This document shows, in pieces, positions 4,195 to 64,000 of a stretch of 64,000 nucleotides of DNA. The first letter of the stretch is position 1. Every line of letters begins with the position of its first letter. The position numbers and the translations under genes are program-made. The notes under the pieces are model-generated. The model had not been told where the DNA came from, did not search any database, and worked only from the letters and a program-made list of their open reading frames with translations. Where the stretch lies: sequence record PZ296772.1; one strand, written 5' to 3'. The stretch is from a phage.

Positions 4195-5967
4195 TTAATT
4201 AACACCGGTGGCATGGAAAATTCCAGGAGCCGTTGTACTTGTTACAGGGGTCATATTCTGGACTACGGTATTCTTTTTGACGACATTATTTGTGTTACTA
4301 ATCGCCGCTACCGGTTGCTGTTGTTTAGATTCAGAAGCACGTCCTTTCTCTATTGACTGAACTTGTTTTGCTTCAGGAGATTTAGTCGAAGATTCAGGCT
4401 TAACTGTTGTCTGAGCCTTTTTGGCTTCAGCCATTTTATTATTTAGCTTTTCAAATCTAGCATCTAATTCCTTTTTAACAACAGGAGTTTTATTAAGTTC
4501 AGGGTCTTTAATAAGTTTACTTAAATCAGCATAAGACTTCTCGACGTTTTTAGCATTTTCCGGATTAGTCATATCGATTTTATCGATATAATCCTCAAAT
4601 CTAACTAGTGCCGCACGAGTTTCATTAGCTTTTATATATGCCTCTTTACGCTCCTCTTCAGGTAACTCTTTTAATTTTGCCGATTCCGCAGCACGTTCAT
4701 CGCTTGTACTAAACTCTTCTTTATTGTCATTACCACGAACCCAGTTAGTAACAAATGTTTTGCCGCGTTGTAACATATCAAGACCTTTAGAAACGGTTCC
4801 TAATTCCCCGTCGTCACGCTTCATTTGATATTTAGCGACTTTCTCTTGGTCTTCTTTCTTTAATTTGTTCCCGGTAGTTTCTTGGAATCCTTCCAAAGCA
4901 CGTCCTTCTATTTCGTCCGCGGTATCACCAAAACCTATAGCACGCAATATAGACGCAGAGAGTTTAGCCATTCCTAATTGAATTAGTTCACCTAAGTTCA
5001 TTAATGCTGTTCCTACACCTTTGACAATAGCAACGGTTAAACCACCCCAGTCTCCAGCTTCCCACAATTGTTTTATCGAGTCAATAGAAGTGAATATATC
5101 ACTTAAGAATTTACCCCACTCTTTAGCTTCATCAGAGAATTTAGTAAAGTTTTCATCAAATAAATCCCAGGCAGAAGTGAACTTGTCTGTCCAATATTTG
5201 AAATGGACTATCAATAAATCAATACCGATAACAATACCAAGAATAAGTGCGGCCATTTTTGCTGCTTCAATAGCAGCTGTTATAGTGTATTTGAAAAGCA
5301 TTCCAGCAATTCTGTCTGAAATTGATATTGATTTATTAAACCCGGTTTGAACCGTTTTGGTGAGCATTGCAATTTTATCGCTCAATTTAAAGCTAATCCC
5401 GCCTTTAGAATCGGAAGTAGAATTAGCGCTTTCTTGAACTGGCGCTGGGAAGAAATCTTCGTCTGGCTTATTATCAATCTTTTCAGGTGTAGGTAATGCT
5501 TTAAACAGCTCATCAGAAGTTTCATTCTCAACCACTTTAACAGGTATTGCGTTCTCAATTACTTCAAGAGAGGTGCCTCCTGTATTTTGAATAGCGGTAG
5601 ATGTTTGTAATTTTTGCTCTAATAATGTAGCTAATCGGTCTAACTTAGAGCTTATTGCACTAGAAACTTCGTTTATACTTTTAGTGACTTCAGTTTGTTT
5701 TTCAATAACCTCTGCGATAAGCTCTGTGCCTTCAGCAGTATTATCTGTCGAATTCTTTAAGTCTCCAATTGATTCAATAATTCCATTGCCTTTATCTTCT
5801 ACACTTTGTGATGTGAGTTCAGACGCGGCTTGGACATCGTCTAGTTTTGATGAAATGTTATTCAATGCTTCTAATGAATCAGTAGCTGCTGTTGCAGCTA
5901 CTTTTTGTGGTTTATTATCGGCAATGACCTTATTTCTACGCATGGATTTCATTTCTTCAGGTTTCAT
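4195..5967 (-). CDS. 29: baseplate hub subunit and tail length determinator gp29
   Basis: 590 aa, same length as T4 gp29; synteny. Confidence 0.8.
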   Translation of the reverse strand: MKPEEMKSMRRNKVIADNKPQKVAATAATDSLEALNNISSKLDDVQAASELTSQSVEDKGNGIIESIGDLKNSTDNTAEGTELIAEVIEKQTEVTKSINEVSSAISSKLDRLATLLEQKLQTSTAIQNTGGTSLEVIENAIPVKVVENETSDELFKALPTPEKIDNKPDEDFFPAPVQESANSTSDSKGGISFKLSDKIAMLTKTVQTGFNKSISISDRIAGMLFKYTITAAIEAAKMAALILGIVIGIDLLIVHFKYWTDKFTSAWDLFDENFTKFSDEAKEWGKFLSDIFTSIDSIKQLWEAGDWGGLTVAIVKGVGTALMNLGELIQLGMAKLSASILRAIGFGDTADEIEGRALEGFQETTGNKLKKEDQEKVAKYQMKRDDGELGTVSKGLDMLQRGKTFVTNWVRGNDNKEEFSTSDERAAESAKLKELPEEERKEAYIKANETRAALVRFEDYIDKIDMTNPENAKNVEKSYADLSKLIKDPELNKTPVVKKELDARFEKLNNKMAEAKKAQTTVKPESSTKSPEAKQVQSIEKGRASESKQQQPVAAISNTNNVVKKNTVVQNMTPVTSTTAPGIFHATGVN

Positions 5968-55980: not shown

Positions 55981-56282
55981 GTAAGATTATTGAAATTAAA
56001 GTACCAGAGTTTAATGATGCCAAATCCGCTTCAGATGCAATTTATAAACTTCTGAATCAAGCTGAACGTATCGAAGAAGAAGCAACAAAGATCGCAGACC
56101 AATATTCTGTATCATTTTCTGTAGGTGATTATGGTAGCGGTCGTACTTATTATCCTAAGGGTGAAATCGTATCCCAGTGGATGAAAAATGAAATTGAAAA
56201 TAATGGCGGCGATGTTAAGCGTGAAGGTAATGGTTACGTTATTACTGAAGGTGCTTGGGTTTCGTCTTCTGCGTTGTGCTAA
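55977..56282 (+). CDS. hypothetical protein, tandem paralog 1 (C-terminal GAWVSSSALC)
   Basis: 101 aa; ATG overlaps upstream stop. Confidence 0.55.
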   Translation: MSKIIEIKVPEFNDAKSASDAIYKLLNQAERIEEEATKIADQYSVSFSVGDYGSGRTYYPKGEIVSQWMKNEIENNGGDVKREGNGYVITEGAWVSSSALC

Positions 56283-56291
56283 GGAATCATT

Positions 56292-56564
56292 ATGTCTAAA
56301 GAACAAACCGAACTGGCTGAAGCCGTAGCAAAAATATATGCAGCTATTGAGGCTGCCAAAGAAATTGCTGATAAACAAAACACAACATTCGACTTGTATC
56401 CAGCTTATGGTATGGGTGGAACCTATCATTCACCAGGACATCTTAAAGCCGATCTTGAACGTTGTACAAAAAACGGTTATGCTGAATGGGCTGATGTTTA
56501 TCAATACGACTACAACCTGAGCCTTGAAGATGGTGGTTGGGTTGCATCTTCACACACTTGCTAA
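56292..56564 (+). CDS. hypothetical protein, tandem paralog 2 (C-terminal GGWVASSHTC)
   Basis: 90 aa; junction TGCTAAGGAA..ATG conserved. Confidence 0.55.
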   Translation: MSKEQTELAEAVAKIYAAIEAAKEIADKQNTTFDLYPAYGMGGTYHSPGHLKADLERCTKNGYAEWADVYQYDYNLSLEDGGWVASSHTC

Positions 56565-56573
56565 GGAAACCAT

Positions 56574-56771
56574 ATGTCTCGTGAATTAGATTGTGCTGTA
56601 CGTACCGCGGTAGCTGCTCTAGAAAACCTGTTCCAAATTGCAACAGAAGAACGCGAAGAAGTTACATTATGGATTGAAGATAACGCAGGTCTGAATCTCC
56701 AGGACGCGATCTCATTATCTAATAATAGCATTACTGTTCAAGGCTGGGTATCGTCTAGTTATTCTTGCTAA
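56574..56771 (+). CDS. hypothetical protein, tandem paralog 3 (C-terminal QGWVSSSYSC)
   Basis: 65 aa; junction conserved. Confidence 0.5.
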   Translation: MSRELDCAVRTAVAALENLFQIATEEREEVTLWIEDNAGLNLQDAISLSNNSITVQGWVSSSYSC

Positions 56772-56775
56772 AACA

Positions 56776-56814
56776 GTTTACAATAAGATAGGACTATGTT
56801 ATAGTAGTCCTATC
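56776..56814 (+). promoter_or_regulatory. early promoter with palindromic stem-loop cassette
   Basis: GTTTAC, 18 nt, TATAGT; inverted repeat GATAGGACTA / TAGTCCTATC identical to 49843-49870. Confidence 0.65.
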
Positions 56815-56833
56815 AAATTAAATGGAGTCCGCA

Positions 56834-57073
56834 ATGATTTATTACGAAAGTATCGGAACCAAAGTGGTTGGTAAAACCATTACTCGTGAAAAGTTTGCAA
56901 AGATATTCGATATGCGTTATAAAAAATCTGAACACAAAGGCATCCGATTCGAAGATGCGCACTGTGCAATTTGCCCTTATAATGAAGACGTAAATGGTAC
57001 AATCGTTCCATTGGTAGAGGCTTCACATGATGACCTCTGGGATGAATATAATATCGCATGTCGTGAAATTTAA
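56834..57073 (+). CDS. hypothetical protein
   Basis: ORF 56822..57073 trimmed to ATG after GGAG; early promoter upstream; CAIC Cys pair. Confidence 0.5.
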   Translation: MIYYESIGTKVVGKTITREKFAKIFDMRYKKSEHKGIRFEDAHCAICPYNEDVNGTIVPLVEASHDDLWDEYNIACREI

Positions 57074-57101
57074 GTTAATGAATTAATCCGAGGAAAATAT
57101 T

Positions 57102-58058
57102 ATGATGTTAGTTATTGGTTCTCGTGCACTTCACTATCATGGTCTTATTGATTCTAGCGCTATCAAAAATAGTGATTGGGACTTTATTGCAGACCAAGGT
57201 TCTTGGAATGCATTCAAAAATCAAATGATGGGTGTATATGTTCATCAAGATAACCCTGATGTCCAAGTTTTCAAATGCTTCCATAATGGACGCGAAACTC
57301 ATTTTGAAGCATATATTGTTCCGGCAATCACTAATGTCCGTGAATTAGTCGGTGAACTCACTCCTGAAGATTTCACGTCTTCTTATGACCTTTTAAAATA
57401 CGCCAAGAAAAATTTGACTAAAGACCGTTTGACCGGGTTTTACTGGGCAACTCCTGAGATATGTCTTGCAATTAAAATGTCTCATCGTTTCAAGAAAAAT
57501 AATCCATTCTTTTTAAAGACTATGAACCATATTCAGTATCTTCGCGGTAAAGGTGTTACACTGAACGATGAACTTACTGAAATTATGCTGAAACGCCAGA
57601 AAGAAACTTTGAACTATGCTCACCCGGTTCTTGACACTTCTAAAAGTGCGTTCTTTAAAGATGACATCTATACATATGACCATGATACTATTCATGAAGC
57701 CATTGCACTAACTGACCAGCCTGCTTATAAGTTTTATATGAAAGAAGGCTCAGAAGTTATGACATCACGCGAGAAGTTCGAATCATTACCAGAAATGGTT
57801 AAATTAGCCGGTGTATATGAAGAAGCTTGTGTATTAGCTCTTGAACGTTCACAGATTCCTAACGACTTTAAAATCCATCCGAGTGATAGTTTTATGATGG
57901 CCCTTGAAAAGGTCTGTACATCAATCACATCAGGATGGTTCCGTGAGTTCGCTTGGGAAAATTATAGCAAAGTAGTAAGTATGTACCAAAGCTTAGGACA
58001 TGACGATTACGTCAAGCGTTTCAAACAAAACTTTCATATGGTAAAACCTTTCAAATAA
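57102..58058 (+). CDS. hypothetical protein, possible nucleotidyltransferase-like N-terminus
   Basis: 318 aa; GAGG SD; N-terminal GS..(x17)..DWD pattern loosely like the pol-beta NTase signature. Confidence 0.5.
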   Translation: MMLVIGSRALHYHGLIDSSAIKNSDWDFIADQGSWNAFKNQMMGVYVHQDNPDVQVFKCFHNGRETHFEAYIVPAITNVRELVGELTPEDFTSSYDLLKYAKKNLTKDRLTGFYWATPEICLAIKMSHRFKKNNPFFLKTMNHIQYLRGKGVTLNDELTEIMLKRQKETLNYAHPVLDTSKSAFFKDDIYTYDHDTIHEAIALTDQPAYKFYMKEGSEVMTSREKFESLPEMVKLAGVYEEACVLALERSQIPNDFKIHPSDSFMMALEKVCTSITSGWFREFAWENYSKVVSMYQSLGHDDYVKRFKQNFHMVKPFK

Positions 58059-58070
58059 TTTCACAAAACA

Positions 58071-58100
58071 GTTTACAAGGTCTGTAGTTGTTGATACTAT
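58071..58100 (+). promoter_or_regulatory. early promoter (sigma70-type)
   Basis: GTTTAC, 18 nt, TACTAT; leader 58103-58135 near-identical to 50192-50226. Confidence 0.65.
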
Positions 58101-58138
58101 AGACCTATCAAAACAAATGAGTGAATGGAGATATAAAA

Positions 58139-58339
58139 ATGACTACTTTGAATAAACGTTTCGGTAAAGCTAAACCTGGTTGTGCAGCAGAACGTCGTTA
58201 TGTTTTCGCTCAGTTAGAAGATGTAGAGTATCAGATTAATCAAGTTCACATTACTGGTATCGAGCCTATGTGTGGCCTTGAAGCTCTTCGTGAAGTTCGT
58301 GATGGGTATCGTCGTGACATCGAAGAAATGTCAAAATAA
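58139..58339 (+). CDS. hypothetical small protein
   Basis: ORF 58121..58339 trimmed to ATG (MTTLNKRF); leader shared with the 50227 gene. Confidence 0.5.
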   Translation: MTTLNKRFGKAKPGCAAERRYVFAQLEDVEYQINQVHITGIEPMCGLEALREVRDGYRRDIEEMSK

Positions 58340-58340
58340 G

Positions 58341-58378
58341 TGTACAAACTGATAGGGCTATGTTATAGTAGTCCTATC
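58341..58378 (+). promoter_or_regulatory. early promoter with palindromic stem-loop cassette
   Basis: TGTACA, 17 nt, TATAGT; inverted repeat GATAGGGCTA / TAGTCCTATC. Confidence 0.6.
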
Positions 58379-58395
58379 AACTTGAGGAGAATATT

Positions 58396-58701
58396 ATGAA
58401 ATTAACAGAAACCAACCGAATCGGTCTTTTTACAATATTTGCATCGCTTTTTTACGCAGCTCTTTCTGTTGCAGTATTACAAAAGGCTTACGATATGGAT
58501 GGTGTTCCTGGTTGTATATTTTTATCACCGTTTTTATTATTCGTCGGAGCTTTGATATTATATGCCACGTCCGGTTTAGACCATAATGTCTGGGTCAATT
58601 ATAAACGTAAATTGTCCGAAGAAGAACACGCAGAAGCTCGTAAAAAAGCTATTGAATCTACCAATCTAGAAAATTTCATTAAAGAATGTCGAGGAAAATA
58701 A
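58396..58701 (+). CDS. small membrane protein with ENFIKECR tail motif
   Basis: 101 aa; GAGGAG SD; two hydrophobic helices. Confidence 0.55.
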   Translation: MKLTETNRIGLFTIFASLFYAALSVAVLQKAYDMDGVPGCIFLSPFLLFVGALILYATSGLDHNVWVNYKRKLSEEEHAEARKKAIESTNLENFIKECRGK

Positions 58702-58702
58702 T

Positions 58703-59389
58703 ATGAATAGTTCTAAAGTGTTTAATAGTCAAGCTCGTGCAGTAGGTGGTTTTGCCGGCGGTATTTCTAATGATAAAATCAAGAACGAGCCTATGTTCTT
58801 CAACTGTAGTTTAGAATTTGCTTATAATAACGGCGGTCCTATTACTCGCTCTTTCATTATGAACTTGCCGGATGATTGGAACACCGACCAGGTTGTATTT
58901 GATTCACGAGTCCACATGCTGATGCCTGGTTGGTATCCTGCAATCCCAGGCTATCACCATGATGACGTACCACGCCCAGATATTCCAGTTGGTCAACACT
59001 TTATTACTGCAGGACAACCTGACTATGACAACCCTCGTTACCATTCTGAACATATTCTTGGTCTTGTTAACGCTGATGTGTGTCCTACTCATTTTGCAAC
59101 AGGAACTGCGGAGTTCAGTCAGATTCCTGATGGCGAACTTATCTATCGCCAGTGGCACAAAGAAGTCCTCGAAAAAATTGAAAAAGGTGAACTAGAGAAA
59201 TGGGAAGCTCCGGACCGTACTCTTCTTCAGTTTGATTGGCAAACATGGCACACTGGTTCTCGTGCAATTAGTAATGGATGGCGTTGGTTCGGACGTGTAT
59301 CTCGTAATACAGACAGAGTTAAAAAGATTACCAATGAAATTCGTGTCAATGCCCAAGTTTATCTGGAATTCCCTATGGAAGGCTGGTAA
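58703..59389 (+). CDS. hypothetical protein
   Basis: 228 aa; His-rich segments (GYHHDD, YHSEH) of unknown significance. Confidence 0.55.
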   Translation: MNSSKVFNSQARAVGGFAGGISNDKIKNEPMFFNCSLEFAYNNGGPITRSFIMNLPDDWNTDQVVFDSRVHMLMPGWYPAIPGYHHDDVPRPDIPVGQHFITAGQPDYDNPRYHSEHILGLVNADVCPTHFATGTAEFSQIPDGELIYRQWHKEVLEKIEKGELEKWEAPDRTLLQFDWQTWHTGSRAISNGWRWFGRVSRNTDRVKKITNEIRVNAQVYLEFPMEGW

Positions 59390-59880
59390 TGATACATAAA
59401 ATTCACTGGGCAAACATGGACGATGGCGATGAAGGTATTTCATATTATTCTATAGATTGGACAGGATGTCCATCCTACTTAGTGAAACATATTTGTCAAG
59501 AATTTAAAATCGACCAGCCAGCAGGTATTATCGTGAACAGATACATTAATGGATATCAACCTATCGATGAAGTAATACGAACAACTCAAGCTGAGCTTGA
59601 AAAGTTTTTCAATAAGTGCCAATGGATAACAGGATGGATTATATTTGTACCGTCTATATGGTTTTTCAGTACTAAGGTGAGTTCTTTCGGTTTTGTTGAT
59701 ACTATTGCTATCTTATTAGCATCTAGTATCATAAGTGTTGTTGGTGGCATCATTGGCGGCGGTACCGCCGCCATCATTATTAATCTTGTTAAAAGTAGTT
59801 TACAAGAACATAAAGACAAGATAAAAGCCAAGAATAATGAAGTTGAACGTTTTATTACCGAATGCAGGAATTTGAGATGA
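59389..59880 (+). CDS. membrane protein with ERFITECR tail motif
   Basis: 163 aa; soluble N-domain then hydrophobic Gly-rich segments. Confidence 0.55.
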   Translation: MIHKIHWANMDDGDEGISYYSIDWTGCPSYLVKHICQEFKIDQPAGIIVNRYINGYQPIDEVIRTTQAELEKFFNKCQWITGWIIFVPSIWFFSTKVSSFGFVDTIAILLASSIISVVGGIIGGGTAAIIINLVKSSLQEHKDKIKAKNNEVERFITECRNLR

Positions 59881-60113
59881 GTATAGCAATTTACATTAAA
59901 TCAGAATCATGTGATTCTTATCTGTATTCCTATGATACCGGAACGTCAGAAGAGAAAATCAAAGAAGATTTAGAAAGCGACTTGGATATGTTCCGACCTA
60001 TTTCTGATTATATGGTCCAAATATCTGATAGTGAAAGTCCGTCAACAGAAACATGTGTTGAAATTATTATACGAGATATCTTTAAACAATCACGGGACCG
60101 AGATGATGAGTAA
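59877..60113 (+). CDS. hypothetical acidic protein
   Basis: ORF 59862..60113 trimmed to ATG overlapping upstream stop. Confidence 0.45.
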   Translation: MSIAIYIKSESCDSYLYSYDTGTSEEKIKEDLESDLDMFRPISDYMVQISDSESPSTETCVEIIIRDIFKQSRDRDDE

Positions 60114-60561
60114 GAAAAATAAAGTGAAAGAACTATCAGCCGGTATTATTTTCCTTACCGAAGATAAAGAATTATTCATGGGGCGTGTAACTGGTTCTCG
60201 TCCTAAAGGTTCTTTAGCTCATCGGTGGGATATTCCTAAAGGTCGTGTCGAGCCCGGTGAATCTCCTATCGAAGCCGCTATTCGTGAATGCGAAGAAGAA
60301 ACTGGGTTTACACAATATGACCCTGCCTTCCTGAAAGACCTAGGTGAACATCATTACTCAGACAATAAGAATATTCATCTGTTCCTATATACCATCCCTG
60401 TAGAGCACGAGCAATTCAGAAACAGTGTTTGTAATTCCTATCATACATTCCCAGATGGACGACAGATTCCTGAATTTGATGCATTCGCTTTAATTAAACC
60501 TTCTCAATGGGAATATGTAATGGGCAAATCATTATATAAGGTGCTCACTACCCTCTTATAA
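60106..60561 (+). CDS. nudE: Nudix hydrolase NudE (e.1)
   Basis: ORF 60031..60561 trimmed to 151 aa; Nudix box GRVEPGESPIEAAIRECEEETG; immediately upstream of e as in T4. Confidence 0.85.
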   Translation: MSKKNKVKELSAGIIFLTEDKELFMGRVTGSRPKGSLAHRWDIPKGRVEPGESPIEAAIRECEEETGFTQYDPAFLKDLGEHHYSDNKNIHLFLYTIPVEHEQFRNSVCNSYHTFPDGRQIPEFDAFALIKPSQWEYVMGKSLYKVLTTLL

Positions 60562-60568
60562 GTAATAA

Positions 60569-60594
60569 ATACCTCCTATAAACGTGGGAGGTAT
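60569..60594 (+). promoter_or_regulatory. RBS-sequestering hairpin upstream of gene e
   Basis: 8 bp stem ATACCTCC / GGAGGTAT; the 3-prime arm is the SD of e; loop contains TATAAACG. Confidence 0.6.
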
Positions 60595-60595
60595 T

Positions 60596-61084
60596 ATGAA
60601 TATATTTGAAATGCTTCGTAATGACGAAGGTCTTAGACTGACTTTATACAAAGACACTGAAGGCTTTTGGACTATTGGCATAGGCCATTTAGTAACAAAG
60701 AACCCGTCTTTAGCCGTAGCTAAAGCTGAACTTGACAGAATGATCGGTCGTAAATGCAACGGTACAATTACACTTGATGAGGCTGAAAAGCTATTTAATG
60801 AAGACGTTGATAAAGCCGTTCGCGGAGTCTTGGGTAATGCTAAACTTAAACCGGTATATGATTCTTTAGATGCGGTTCGTCGATGTGCATTGGTCAATAT
60901 GGTCTTCCAAATGGGTGTAGCAGGCGTCGCCGGTTTTACTAATTCTCTTCGTATGCTTCAACAGAAACGTTGGGACGAGGCGGCAGTAAATCTAGCCCAA
61001 TCTAAATGGTATCGTCAGACACCTAATCGCGCGAAACGCGTAATCTCAACATTTAAAACAGGAACTTGGAAAGCGTATATATGA
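60596..61084 (+). CDS. e: endolysin (T4 lysozyme)
   Basis: ORF 60584..61084 trimmed to MNIFEMLR; catalytic E11/D20/T26 conserved; matches remembered T4 lysozyme. Confidence 0.95.
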
Positions 61085-61362
61085 AAACATATAGTGAATT
61101 TTTATCAGAATCTATTCTTAGCGAAGCTACTGACACATTTGCAACTAAGCTAGGTGCAGCTTTGGTTGAAGCTGAAAGTCTATTAGCACGTATTTCTGAA
61201 CTTGCTAGTAAGATAGATACTCGCAAATTTGAGCGCACCAGTGATATCGTTAAGCTTGAAGCATTGTTGCGCATGTGTGATAAACCAGAAGAAATCGCTA
61301 AGAACGGTTCGCTGATGAAACAACGTCTTGAAAAATATATTTCAGGCGCTTCAGAAAAATAG
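61081..61362 (+). CDS. internal protein-like with capsid targeting sequence
   Basis: ORF 61066..61362 trimmed to [10 protein letters not shown]; ATG overlaps e stop. Confidence 0.65.
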
Positions 61363-61363
61363 T

Positions 61364-61393
61364 GTTTACTTCCTCCAAGGTCTTTGATACTAT
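61364..61393 (+). promoter_or_regulatory. early promoter for denV
   Basis: GTTTAC, 18 nt, TACTAT; GGAGG SD before denV ATG. Confidence 0.65.
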
Positions 61394-61420
61394 ACATTCA
61401 TCAACTACTTGGAGGAAATT

Positions 61421-61834
61421 ATGACTCGTATCAATTTAACACTTGTTTCTGAACTGGCCGACCAACATCTTATGGCTGAGTATCGTGAATTACCACGCGT
61501 ATTTGGTGCAGTCCGTAAACATGTCCAAAATGGTAAACGTGTAAAGGATTTTAAAATCTCTCCAACATTTATCTTAGGCACAGGTCACGTAACATTCTTT
61601 TACGACAAACTCGAATTTTTACGTTTACGTCAAATCGAGCTAATCGCTGAATGTTTGAAACGCGGTTTCAAAATAAAGGACACGACGGTCCAGGATATTT
61701 CCGACATACCTGCCGAATTTCGTAATAATTATGTCCCGTCCGAAGCGTCCATTGCGATAAGTCAAGCACGCTTAGATGAAAAAATTGCTCAACGTCCGAC
61801 TTGGTACAAATACTATGGTAAATCAATTTACTAA
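61421..61834 (+). CDS. denV: endonuclease V (pyrimidine dimer DNA glycosylase)
   Basis: ORF 61409..61834 trimmed to [29 protein letters not shown]; matches remembered T4 EndoV. Confidence 0.93.
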
Positions 61835-61840
61835 GGAAAA

Positions 61841-62101
61841 ATGAAAATGTATCAAGAATTTATCTTTGAAGCAGATGCCAAAGGTCCTAAATTTAAAGTT
61901 AAAGCTTTCATTGGTGATGCGGAAGACTTTGGCTCGTTAAAACGTAATGGATATTCTTTCTTAGGTGGCGATGGTAAAGAAATCAACACCTATGCAAAAC
62001 GTAGTGAAATTGCTTATGTTGTAGCAAGCCCTAAAGTAGACGTTGGCGATATTGGATATGATTTTAACAACTTCGGAATTATTTCTGGCGGTAAAGCTTA
62101 A
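61841..62101 (+). CDS. internal protein-like with capsid targeting sequence
   Basis: 86 aa; N-terminus MKMYQEFIFE; AAGGAAA SD. Confidence 0.6.
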   Translation: MKMYQEFIFEADAKGPKFKVKAFIGDAEDFGSLKRNGYSFLGGDGKEINTYAKRSEIAYVVASPKVDVGDIGYDFNNFGIISGGKA

Positions 62102-62104
62102 ACG

Positions 62105-62134
62105 GTTTACGCTTAAGTATTAATATGGTATAAT
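62105..62134 (+). promoter_or_regulatory. early promoter
   Basis: GTTTAC, 18 nt, TATAAT, then GCTCTATCAA. Confidence 0.65.
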
Positions 62135-62164
62135 TGCTCTATCAAAACAAACAAGGAAACAAAA

Positions 62165-62494
62165 ATGAAAACGTATAAAGAATTTATCACTGAAGTTACA
62201 TTATCTGCGGAACAGAAAGCTGCTATCGAAGAAGGTAAAAATCCCAAAGTAACATATAAAGTAAATAGTAAAGGCGTTTTTGATGGTTTGGTTCAAGACC
62301 CTGAATTGAAAAAAGCTCTTTCTAAAACTAATGCGTACTTTGCTCCTAAATTTAACACAGCCGGTGTACTTATTGGATTGGATGTATTCAACTCTAAAGG
62401 TGTTCTATCTAATGCCTTTGGTTATGCCGCTAACAAAATTACCAAAGCTGCATGGGAATCCAATACCAAACAAGCTCAAAAGCCTAGAGTATAA
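62165..62494 (+). CDS. internal protein-like with capsid targeting sequence
   Basis: 109 aa; N-terminus MKTYKEFITE; first 8 codons near-identical at nucleotide level to the 49541 gene. Confidence 0.65.
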   Translation: MKTYKEFITEVTLSAEQKAAIEEGKNPKVTYKVNSKGVFDGLVQDPELKKALSKTNAYFAPKFNTAGVLIGLDVFNSKGVLSNAFGYAANKITKAAWESNTKQAQKPRV

Positions 62495-62666
62495 TTCTTG
62501 CCTAATAAAGGGAAACGCAACCTCTCCTCATGAACGTCGAGTCCTCTGAGTGATGTACCTTTTCCAACCTGTAATAAGGCCGAGCGCAATGCGGTAATGG
62601 GTTTACATAGCGAGTCGAAGGACCTAACATGTGCCACGGAACGGCCCCAACCTTAAGAGAAACTAA

Positions 62667-63206
62667 ATGAGAACATTTTTAACCGGACCTTATCTATCCC
62701 TGATGAATGCTTTTACACACCATTCTGATGCTAGAGTAGAAGAAATTTGTAAGAACGGTTATGTCCCACCATTTGAAGACGTACTCAAGCAGTACTGTAC
62801 ACTTCGTTTAGACGGCGGCAGACAATCAGGTAAATCAATTGCTGTGACTAACTTTGCTGCTAATTGGCTGTATGATGGCGGAACAGTTATTGTTCTTTCT
62901 AATACTTCAGCTTATGCTAAAATTTCTGCCGGCAACATTGAAAAAGAATTTTCTCGTTATTCTAGCGACGATATTCGATTCCGTTTATTTACTGATTCTG
63001 TTCGTAGTTTTATTGGCAATGAAGGTTCTAAATTCCGTGGATTAACGCTTTCTCGTATTCTGTATATAATTGACGAGCCTATTAAAGCTCCTGATATGGA
63101 TAAGATTTACAATGTCCATATTAAAACAGTCCAACACTGTTGCAAAAGCAAATATTGCATCGGCGGTAATGCTCGTCCTCAATTTTTTGTGATTGGAATG
63201 CAATGA
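62667..63206 (+). CDS. hypothetical small P-loop NTPase
   Basis: 179 aa; Walker A GGRQSGKS and Walker B-like LYIIDEP. Confidence 0.55.
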   Translation: MRTFLTGPYLSLMNAFTHHSDARVEEICKNGYVPPFEDVLKQYCTLRLDGGRQSGKSIAVTNFAANWLYDGGTVIVLSNTSAYAKISAGNIEKEFSRYSSDDIRFRLFTDSVRSFIGNEGSKFRGLTLSRILYIIDEPIKAPDMDKIYNVHIKTVQHCCKSKYCIGGNARPQFFVIGMQ

Positions 63207-63511
63207 TGACCACTATTGAAGTTTTTGAATATTGTTATAACAGTCCAGTATGCAATAAAAGGGCTCTTGTAGAAAATTACGAGATTTACCATTTTAAACC
63301 TAAACGATACCGTTTGACTAAAGGACTGTTTGCAGGGCAGCAGGTTCTTTGTACTGCTCCTAATGCACGGTTGATGACTAGTATTCCGCATTTCAAAATG
63401 GAATTTATTGATGGGCCATTTAAGGGATTAATCACTCAAAGTTTAATGGCGTTTAATTCCGACCCGTTTTTGATTAAAGAAAAAACTTGGATAAATTTAT
63501 TTTCTAATTGA
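63203..63511 (+). CDS. hypothetical protein
   Basis: 102 aa ORF overlapping previous stop. Confidence 0.5.
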   Translation: MMTTIEVFEYCYNSPVCNKRALVENYEIYHFKPKRYRLTKGLFAGQQVLCTAPNARLMTSIPHFKMEFIDGPFKGLITQSLMAFNSDPFLIKEKTWINLFSN

Positions 63512-63517
63512 GGTTAT

Positions 63518-63880
63518 ATGAAAGCATATCAAATTCTTGAAGGTGCACATAAAGGCACTATTTATTTTGAAGACGGCACTCAAGCCCGGATTATTGTCTC
63601 TAAGACTTTTAAAGAAGACGCTATTGTAGACCCGGAAATTTTCTACGGTTTGATTGCCCGTGAAATTGAAATTGAACATCAACCTAAAGTTAAAATTGAA
63701 GGTGGTCAACACCTGAACGTTAATGTTCTGCGTCGTGAAACTCTGGAAGATGCAGTTAAGCATCCAGAAAAATATCCGCAGTTGACCATCCGTGTATCCG
63801 GTTATGCAGTTCGCTTTAACTCTCTGACTCCGGAACAGCAGCGCGACGTTATCGCTCGTACCTTTACTGAGAGTCTATAA
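63518..63880 (+). CDS. autonomous glycyl radical cofactor (GrcA/YfiD-like)
   Basis: 120 aa; glycyl radical motif RVSGYAV; C-terminal ~60 aa match remembered E. coli GrcA. Confidence 0.85.
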
Positions 63881-64000
63881 TAGCTAAATTGATTATAGAA
63901 GGGTCTGAAGATGTTTTAAAATGTTTTGCCGCCTGGTTTAGTTGCTCAGGCGAGCAATCATTCATTGAAGCATTTAGAATGGGTGATATTACTGGAAACT

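Follow-up and report, generated by a model that had tools for sequence, protein, structure and literature searches.

How does a lytic phage come to carry a gene that matches its host's gene almost base for base in one half and at fewer than half of its bases in the other? The question is raised by an open reading frame (ORF) at positions 63518 to 63880 of the plus strand in a 64,000-nucleotide (nt) stretch of phage DNA (sequence record PZ296772.1; the whole stretch is referred to here as the window). A first-pass annotation, made from the letters alone, had described the product as a GrcA-like glycyl radical cofactor nearly identical in its C terminus to Escherichia coli GrcA (also called YfiD), attributed this to recent capture or strong constraint, and proposed that the phage supports the anaerobic metabolism of its host. 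The gene is the counterpart of vs.6 of phage T4, which encodes the protein Y06I. Our preferred reading, to which we assign a probability of roughly 0.8, is that this vs.6 ortholog acts as a spare part for pyruvate formate-lyase (PFL), that the half encoding its radical domain was recently replaced by host sequence, and that a replacement of the same kind took place independently in Klebsiella phages of the genus Jiaodavirus.

Comparing the ORF base by base with E. coli grcA revealed a sharply bounded host-like segment. Differences are dense up to position 63695 and then break off abruptly; over the following 175 nt (63696 to 63870, plus strand, from the end of codon 60 to the second position of codon 118), which encode the glycyl radical domain, 172 of 175 nt are identical to the host gene, and the three differences, at 63724, 63766, and 63782, are all synonymous. 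The remaining 10 nt (63871 to 63880, from the third position of codon 118 through the final two codons to the stop) form a 3′ edge in which phage copies differ from the host and among themselves; in the window, the phage gaG agT ctA taa stands against the host gaA agC ctG taa, with differences at 63871, 63874, and 63877. Within codons 61 to 117, the window agrees with E. coli grcA at 168 of 171 nt, T4 at 170, and four other Tequatrovirus copies at all 171, compared with 83 of 180 nt (∼46%) for codons 1 to 60 of the window (Fisher P = 8 × 10−32 for the contrast with the tract). Where phage and host conserve a residue, they use a different codon for it in 9 of 19 cases in the N-terminal half and in 6 of 60 cases in the C-terminal half (P = 0.001). 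The GC content at third codon positions (GC3) rises from 0.25 in the N part to 0.39 in the tract, toward the value of 0.42 in E. coli grcA. A blastn search of 5,426 complete E. coli genomes aligned only nt 141 to 363 of the gene, and a megablast search of the same genomes with the whole window returned 63696 to 63880 as its sole match.

The resemblance is to E. coli in particular. Over the last 60 codons, the window is identical to E. coli at 174 of 180 nt, to Citrobacter at 161, to Klebsiella spp. at 148 to 150, and to Salmonella at 145, and its tract matches K. pneumoniae at 147 of 171 nt. The hosts themselves are further apart: E. coli and Salmonella share 151 of 180 nt and E. coli and Citrobacter amalonaticus 167 of 180 nt of the last 60 codons, and E. 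coli and K. pneumoniae share 150 of 171 nt of codons 61 to 117. Expressed as synonymous divergence (dS), the tract lies at 0.07 (window) and 0.00 (T4) from E. coli, compared with 1.13 between E. coli and Salmonella and 0.60 between E. coli and K. pneumoniae. Bacterial grcA is evenly diverged along its length, with an N-part identity of 0.841 and a tract identity of 0.877 between E. coli and K. pneumoniae; it is therefore the phage gene that is the mosaic, and the transfer ran from host to phage. By these comparisons, vs.6 is a mosaic of a 5′ part of phage lineage and a 3′ part of 175 nt recently taken from host grcA; the tract would have been replaced through homologous recombination or gene conversion with E. 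coli grcA. Recent capture thus describes the 3′ half, with its host-identical synonymous sites (dS, 0.07) and with constraint acting on top, and does not describe the 5′ half; likewise, the near-identity to the host noted earlier holds for the C-terminal half, only about half of the gene being host-like. We found no description of the vs.6 mosaic in the searchable literature, though older papers outside it may mention the identity at the DNA level.

The 5′ part (63518 to 63695, plus strand; codons 1 to 59 and the start of codon 60; GC3, 0.25) has a different history. Its protein sequence is identical to that of E. coli GrcA at 19 of the 60 positions of codons 1 to 60. In an hhalign comparison, the N-terminal halves of T4-like phage proteins aligned with those of bacterial GrcA proteins with a probability of 92% (E = 6.5 × 10−7; 48 collinear columns, 31% identity), and this profile-profile comparison, the only method to detect the relationship, weakly suggests that the phage N-terminal half is a diverged homolog of GrcA's disordered N-terminal half. 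Between the window and T4, codons 1 to 60 differ by a nonsynonymous divergence (dN) of 0.062 and a dS of 0.436, which indicates purifying selection among phages; the N-terminal half is therefore functional, in agreement with the published role of the GrcA N-terminal half in binding cleaved PFL. We regard this half as old and vertically inherited in T4-like phages. A variant was seen in the Tequatrovirus Escherichia phage OES_C-2 (L173, positions 227 to 583), whose vs.6 carries a 6-nt in-frame deletion in the N-terminal half (357 nt; the protein reads REIETQPTVKI there), so that the N-terminal half tolerates insertions and deletions; the last 183 nt of this copy differ from E. coli grcA at a single base.

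In the Jiaodavirus phages KEN37 and Roth76 and in an IMG/VR contig (L117), the N-terminal half is of the phage type, with 73% nt identity to the window. Their tracts match K. pneumoniae grcA at 160 to 166 of 171 nt and E. coli grcA at 146 to 148, and in Tequatrovirus the order is reversed. We sorted the informative sites among four taxa (window, Roth76, E. coli, and K. pneumoniae) by the grouping they favor. In the N part, 60 sites group phage with phage, 3 group each phage with its own host, and 2 show the other pattern; in the tract, the counts are 0, 19, and 0 (P = 8 × 10−16), and in the last 9 nt they are 2, 0, and 0. Because the site patterns flip between the N part and the tract, we conclude from them that there were at least two independent host-to-phage replacements. 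Codivergence from one ancient capture, which would predict phage-host distances about equal to the host-host distance, was excluded. GC3 in Roth76 moves across the junction from 0.23 to 0.63, and K. pneumoniae grcA has 0.67; in both genera, the gene thus combines segment-wise phylogenetic incongruence with a donor-like composition of the patch, as a host-derived recombinant patch does. The 5′ edge of the tract falls within 2 nt in the two genera, immediately before a conserved GAAGGYGGTCA, and the 3′ edge lies 7 nt from the gene end in T4, 10 nt in the window, 16 nt in RB32, and 25 nt in Jiaodavirus. Tracking of the host is shown in this way for two genera and is not proposed as a general rule.

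Some records encountered in these comparisons call for comment. The K. pneumoniae grcA sequence was taken from CP125156.1 (L174), a 5.37-Mb replicon filed in PLSDB under the mislabel "plasmid unnamed2." The grcA gene of K. aerogenes NCTC10006 (LR134122.1, L175) contains a frameshift, probably an assembly error, and is annotated there as a truncated "pyruvate formate-lyase." Several IMG/VR contigs classified as viral (L245 to L254) carry full-length or partial pflB (ORFs of 760 amino acids) without a GrcA-like gene and are probably host DNA or prophage-flanking sequence rather than sources of phage GrcA homologs. A 116-kb record (H66) with a 98.9% host-like tract was considered as an independent capture by a T5-like phage and was rejected, as it is a short Tequatrovirus assembly.

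To date the replacement within Tequatrovirus, 11 copies were compared between the clade of the window and that of T4. The tract differs by 1.5% on average between pairs and has 12 variable sites, 10 of them singletons and none fixed between the clades. Codons 1 to 60 differ by 6.1% and have 13 fixed differences, and the flanks differ by 14 to 17%, with 89 fixed differences in vs.7 and 28 in the 120 nt downstream, in vs.5. Since the tract contains no fixed difference, it is younger than the split of the two clades. The three variants of the window's tract are probably later phage mutations, because no E. coli allele among the 5,426 genomes carries them (best match, 98.2%). The single nonsynonymous change in the tract among the Tequatrovirus copies examined occurs in T4 vs.6 (L002, positions 5558 to 5920), in which codon 73 changed from CGT to CAT (R73H); the window and RB32 retain the Arg of the host.

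The product of the gene is assigned to the GrcA family on several grounds. The ORF is intact, runs from an ATG start to a TAA stop, and encodes 120 amino acids; it is preceded by a GAGG ribosome-binding site (63510 to 63513, plus strand) 4 nt upstream from the ATG, which overlaps the TGA stop (63509 to 63511) of the upstream gene vs.7. With its own ribosome-binding site and stop, it encodes a stand-alone small protein in the size range of GrcA/YfiD (∼14 kDa). In a codon-level alignment, residues 61 to 120, which end in TFTESL, are identical to residues 68 to 127 of E. coli GrcA at 60 of 60 positions; the sequence given in the first-pass annotation, including RVSGY, and its coordinates proved exact, and neither a lower identity than stated there nor loss of the conserved Gly was found. 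The glycyl radical loop R92-V-S-G95-Y96 (63791 to 63805, plus strand) aligns column for column with the PDB structures 6OWR and 1H16 (HMMER alignments to 6OWR and to the PFL structures 1CM5 and 1H16), placing Gly95 (codon 63800 to 63802), the predicted radical site, opposite Gly102 of GrcA and Gly734 of PFL. Pfam PF01228 (Gly_radical) matched residues 60 to 101 (E = 1.9 × 10−18; 67.3 bits, cutoff 22.2), the top NCBIfam model was the GrcA equivalog TIGR04365 (InterPro IPR011140), and the closest solved structure was E. coli GrcA (PDB 6OWR; E = 4.5 × 10−42), followed by the last 65 residues of PFL. Chance falls far short of explaining these matches. Residues 56 to 120 align with residues 695 to 759 of PflB (E = 2.3 × 10−26), and 51 of 65 residues (78%) are identical to the PflB C terminus. 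Full-length formate C-acetyltransferase (PflB/TdcE) is not what the gene encodes, as the match to PflB models and structures was confined to their final ∼65 positions; the label "pyruvate formate-lyase" in phage records is therefore a misnomer. Labels vary across phage records, from hypothetical protein, pyruvate formate-lyase, and acetyltransferase-related protein to GrcA and, in one record, HNH homing endonuclease. By domain, radical loop, size, and homology of the N-terminal half, the protein is placed in the GrcA family, missing only the equivalog score.

The window belongs to a Tequatrovirus. Its last 8 kb are 95 to 97.6% identical to many Tequatrovirus genomes; the closest records are Shigella phage SSE1 over 56000 to 64000 (97.5% across the full 8 kb) and Escherichia phage 55 over the gene (99.2%), and matches spanning at least 80% of the gene occur in 834 phage records. 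The protein is identical to T4 vs.6 (Y06I, NP_049730) at 112 of 120 residues and matches PHROG 1209 over residues 1 to 120 (E = 3.5 × 10−62). The order vs.8-vs.7-vs.6-vs.5 is common to the window, RB32, and T4: the ORFs at 62667 to 63206 and 63203 to 63511, which match PHROGs 1488 and 2049, stand where vs.8 and vs.7 stand in RB32 and T4, and the sequence downstream of the gene aligns to vs.5. A T4 homolog had been mentioned in the first-pass annotation; by identity and gene order, the gene is the ortholog of T4 vs.6/Y06I and not merely a relative. The T4 RefSeq record already names vs.6 "autonomous glycyl radical cofactor GrcA." Gene, family, and mechanism are thus already known, annotated, and characterized in T4, and the earlier GrcA interpretation is supported.

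What would a phage gain from such a protein? According to PMC8683613, validated PFL spare parts number only two, E. coli YfiD and T4 Y06I; each receives a glycyl radical from PFL activase, forms a complex with oxygen-cleaved PFL, and restores its activity (Wagner et al. 2001, BBRC 285:456, as cited there). A 2026 review describes spare-part proteins so far for formate lyases only. In YfiD, residues 61 to 127 form the structured module that takes the place of PFL residues 693 to 759, and the disordered residues 1 to 60 are dispensable for catalysis and improve binding and activation (PMC8683613). For the protein of the window, we propose the following course. Oxygen would cleave host PFL at Gly734, where its glycyl radical sits; the phage protein would bind the cleaved enzyme, the host activase PflA would install a radical on Gly95, and the C-terminal domain would substitute for the lost PFL domain, so that conversion of pyruvate to acetyl coenzyme A (acetyl-CoA) and formate would be restored. 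The phage may need a copy of its own because infection shuts down host gene expression, so that host grcA would no longer be inducible. Keeping PFL at work would then provide fermentative energy and formate as a reductant for the phage anaerobic ribonucleotide reductase (RNR), NrdD. Support of host anaerobic metabolism by the phage, as put forward in the first-pass annotation, would follow by analogy with the published in vitro work on T4 Y06I.

The link to NrdD draws on gene order in other phages. In Aeromonas phage Ah1 (L091, positions 197 to 580), a GrcA-like gene lies between nrdG and nrdC; a 235-kb viral contig (L217, positions 4848 to 5210) has the order nrdD-nrdG-grcA-nrdC; and in three contigs of ∼350 kb (L200, 4902 to 5357; L202, 4995 to 5357; and L203, 4983 to 5357), nrdD and nrdG flank the GrcA-like gene. 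Klebsiella phage RaK2 is one of these three, and the same annotation is found in related jumbo phages of E. coli and Salmonella. PFL is the formate source of the cell. Most class III RNRs characterized so far use formate as their reductant, and T4 NrdD has been proposed to contain a formate site (PMC4493059). Because of these two relations and the position of the GrcA-like gene inside the nrd cluster, we suggest that rescue of PFL may supply formate to NrdD.

Could the C-terminal half be host-identical merely because selection holds it in place? In this account, a single ancient capture would have been followed by strong purifying selection on the C-terminal half and drift of an unconstrained N-terminal half, which would fit a C-terminal domain whose function is critical and whose protein sequence is highly conserved in every homolog, and a disordered GrcA N-terminal half for which fast evolution is expected (PMC8683613). 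Synonymous sites, however, cannot be held in place by selection on the protein, and dS is 0.00 to 0.07 between phage and E. coli versus 0.60 to 1.13 between hosts. A synonymous constraint shared by phage and host, such as an RNA element, found no counterpart in Rfam, which gave zero matches for 56000 to 64000 of the window. Nor would constraint make the Tequatrovirus tract specific for E. coli (168 to 171 of 171 nt, versus 155 to 157 for Citrobacter and 139 to 141 for Salmonella), make Klebsiella phages match K. pneumoniae, or shift GC3 to the donor value at abrupt boundaries, and we hold this account to be very improbable. A chimeric ORF created by misassembly of host reads into the phage genome deserves even less credence, to the point of being negligible: no other DNA in the window is host-like, and the GC content of the tract exceeds that of its surroundings, but the T4 reference, RB32, and hundreds of phages sequenced independently share this in-frame junction (of 749 phage records matching at least 80% of the last 183 nt of E. 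coli grcA, 639 do so at ≥95% identity), the ORF is intact, and the tract contains phage-specific synonymous variants. More serious is the possibility that the host was involved only once within Tequatrovirus, a single conversion having then swept through the genus by phage-phage recombination. T4-like phages recombine readily, all sampled Tequatrovirus tracts center on one E. coli allele with a star-like excess of singletons (10 of 12 segregating sites), no host allele has the three variants of the window, and Tequatroviruses isolated on Yersinia carry an E. coli-type tract. Such a sweep would have to move only ∼175 nt, though, since the DNA on both sides keeps deep clade-specific differences (13 fixed in codons 1 to 60 and 28 in the 120 nt downstream); the 3′ edge varies among phages (T4, 7 nt before the end of the gene; window, 10 nt; RB32, 16 nt), which fits separate events or later mutation; and the independent event in Jiaodavirus shows that the process recurs. 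We therefore rate a single conversion followed by a sweep as possible but doubtful.

The function might also be something other than repair of PFL in vivo: the protein could serve as a spare part for the NrdD of the phage, or as a decoy that blocks PFL or titrates PflA. The gene sits within an nrdD-nrdG cluster in several phages, and spare parts for other glycyl radical enzymes are a matter of speculation in PMC8683613. Against such functions, the NCBIfam scores are of the GrcA/PFL type, with no NrdD family among the matches, and the C-terminal domain is identical to that of host GrcA and 78% (51 of 65) identical to the PflB C terminus; T4 Y06I is reported in the same paper to restore PFL activity in vitro, and repeated replacement by the functional domain of the host is what would be expected of a protein obliged to cooperate with the PflA and PflB of the host. 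We consider these functions quite unlikely, if less so than a single ancient capture.

Several observations nevertheless weigh against the reading of vs.6 as a host-patched PFL spare part or narrow its reach. The function of the protein from the window's phage is transferred from T4 Y06I, and no in vivo phenotype of a phage vs.6 mutant was found in the searchable literature, which also leaves room for the decoy or NrdD part. The protein scores 157.2 bits against the GrcA equivalog of NCBIfam, below the cutoff of 170, because the N-terminal half is diverged, and an NCBIfam scan with the N-terminal 60 amino acids alone gave no match even at E ≤ 10; the subcutoff score probably explains the label "hypothetical protein" in many phage records and may be the cause of the inconsistent annotation. 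No tract above 149 of 171 nt was found in the homologs of Slopekvirus, Pseudotevenvirus, Karamvirus, T5-like, Aeromonas, and jumbo phages when compared with about 80 bacterial grcA genes, among which the true hosts may be unsampled. The lack of an E. coli allele with the three variants of the window belongs here as well, and within Tequatrovirus, repeated conversion by the host and one conversion spread between phages both fit the data. The formate link to NrdD, finally, is guilt by association: T4 nrdD and nrdG lie ∼17 to 21 kb away from vs.6, and no nrdD or nrdG was found within ≤5 kb of the homolog in the T5-like contigs of ∼100 to 120 kb.

The surroundings of the gene showed further features. 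A sigma-70 promoter scan of 62400 to 64000 returned 5 sites versus 4.1 expected, and terminator matches were all inside coding sequence. Upstream, three small ORFs (61066 to 61362, 61841 to 62101, and 62165 to 62494) carry MKTYSEF, MKMYQEF, and MKTYKEF, respectively, at or near their starts, which we take to resemble the capsid-targeting leader of T4 internal proteins (Ip). The window has the order e, Ip-like, denV, Ip-like, Ip-like, vs.8, compared with e, ipIII, ipII, denV, vs.8 in T4 and e, Ip4, vs.8 in RB32; because the gene order differs from both, the region from e to vs.8 resembles an internal-protein locus of variable content. The last Ip-like ORF is separated from vs.8 by an apparently noncoding gap of ∼170 nt (62495 to 62666) with an unusually high GC content of 0.44 to 0.51, versus 0.38 for the window; it matched no Rfam family and no E. 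coli genome and contains only a weak sigma-70-like site (62602 to 62630) and short minus-strand ORFs.

A vs.6 ortholog is expected in a T4-like phage and suggests that gut coliphages invest in host fermentation when oxygen fluctuates. What the mosaic contributes is direct evidence, from sequence, of an exchange of short DNA tracts between strictly lytic T4-like phages and the host chromosome, in two genera independently, and the exchanged domain is exactly the one that must fit host PflA and PflB. We lean toward the view, at somewhat better than even odds, that recurrent homologous recombination with host DNA keeps the functional half of this lytic phage metabolic gene identical to that of its current host. 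The gene offers a simple system for measuring gene conversion from host to phage and may mark which host a phage has recently used, and its linkage to nrd genes in other phages provides a concrete hypothesis for why a phage benefits from a working PFL. Should this view hold generally, vs.6 would naturally report host-to-T4 gene conversion and the recent host history of a phage, and the linkage of nrdD, grcA, and nrdG in jumbo and Aeromonas phages would point to the securing of formate for phage anaerobic deoxynucleoside triphosphate (dNTP) synthesis as the purpose.

Among known systems, T4 Y06I is the closest: it shares the length of 120 amino acids, the vs.8-vs.7-vs.6-vs.5 neighborhood, and the mosaic structure. 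It differs by eight amino acid changes, seven in the N-terminal half and R73 (window) versus H73 (T4), by the absence of the three synonymous tract changes of the window, and by belonging to the other Tequatrovirus clade. E. coli GrcA/YfiD (P68066; PDB 6OWR) corresponds through its residues 68 to 127 to residues 61 to 120 of the phage protein and through a collinear, remotely homologous N-terminal half, which in the phage is ∼30% identical and 7 residues shorter; its gene is chromosomal, between ung and eamB, whereas the phage gene lies in an early-region-like cluster of a lytic phage. The C-terminal glycyl radical domain of PflB/TdcE has the fold unit and radical loop in common with the phage protein, but PflB is a protein of ∼760 amino acids with a ten-stranded catalytic barrel and Cys418/Cys419; having 120 amino acids and none of these features, the phage protein could act only as a replacement module. 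As a history, the nearest parallel is the intragenic recombination between host and phage described for cyanophage psbA and psbD (Sullivan et al. 2006, PMC1484495), in which a phage metabolic gene of host origin likewise shows host-like patches, shifts in composition, and segment-wise incongruence. Unlike that case, vs.6 resides in lytic T4-like enterobacterial phages and contains a single, sharply bounded tract of ∼175 nt that coincides exactly with the functional domain, with up to 100% identity to the current host species and independent replacement in two genera.

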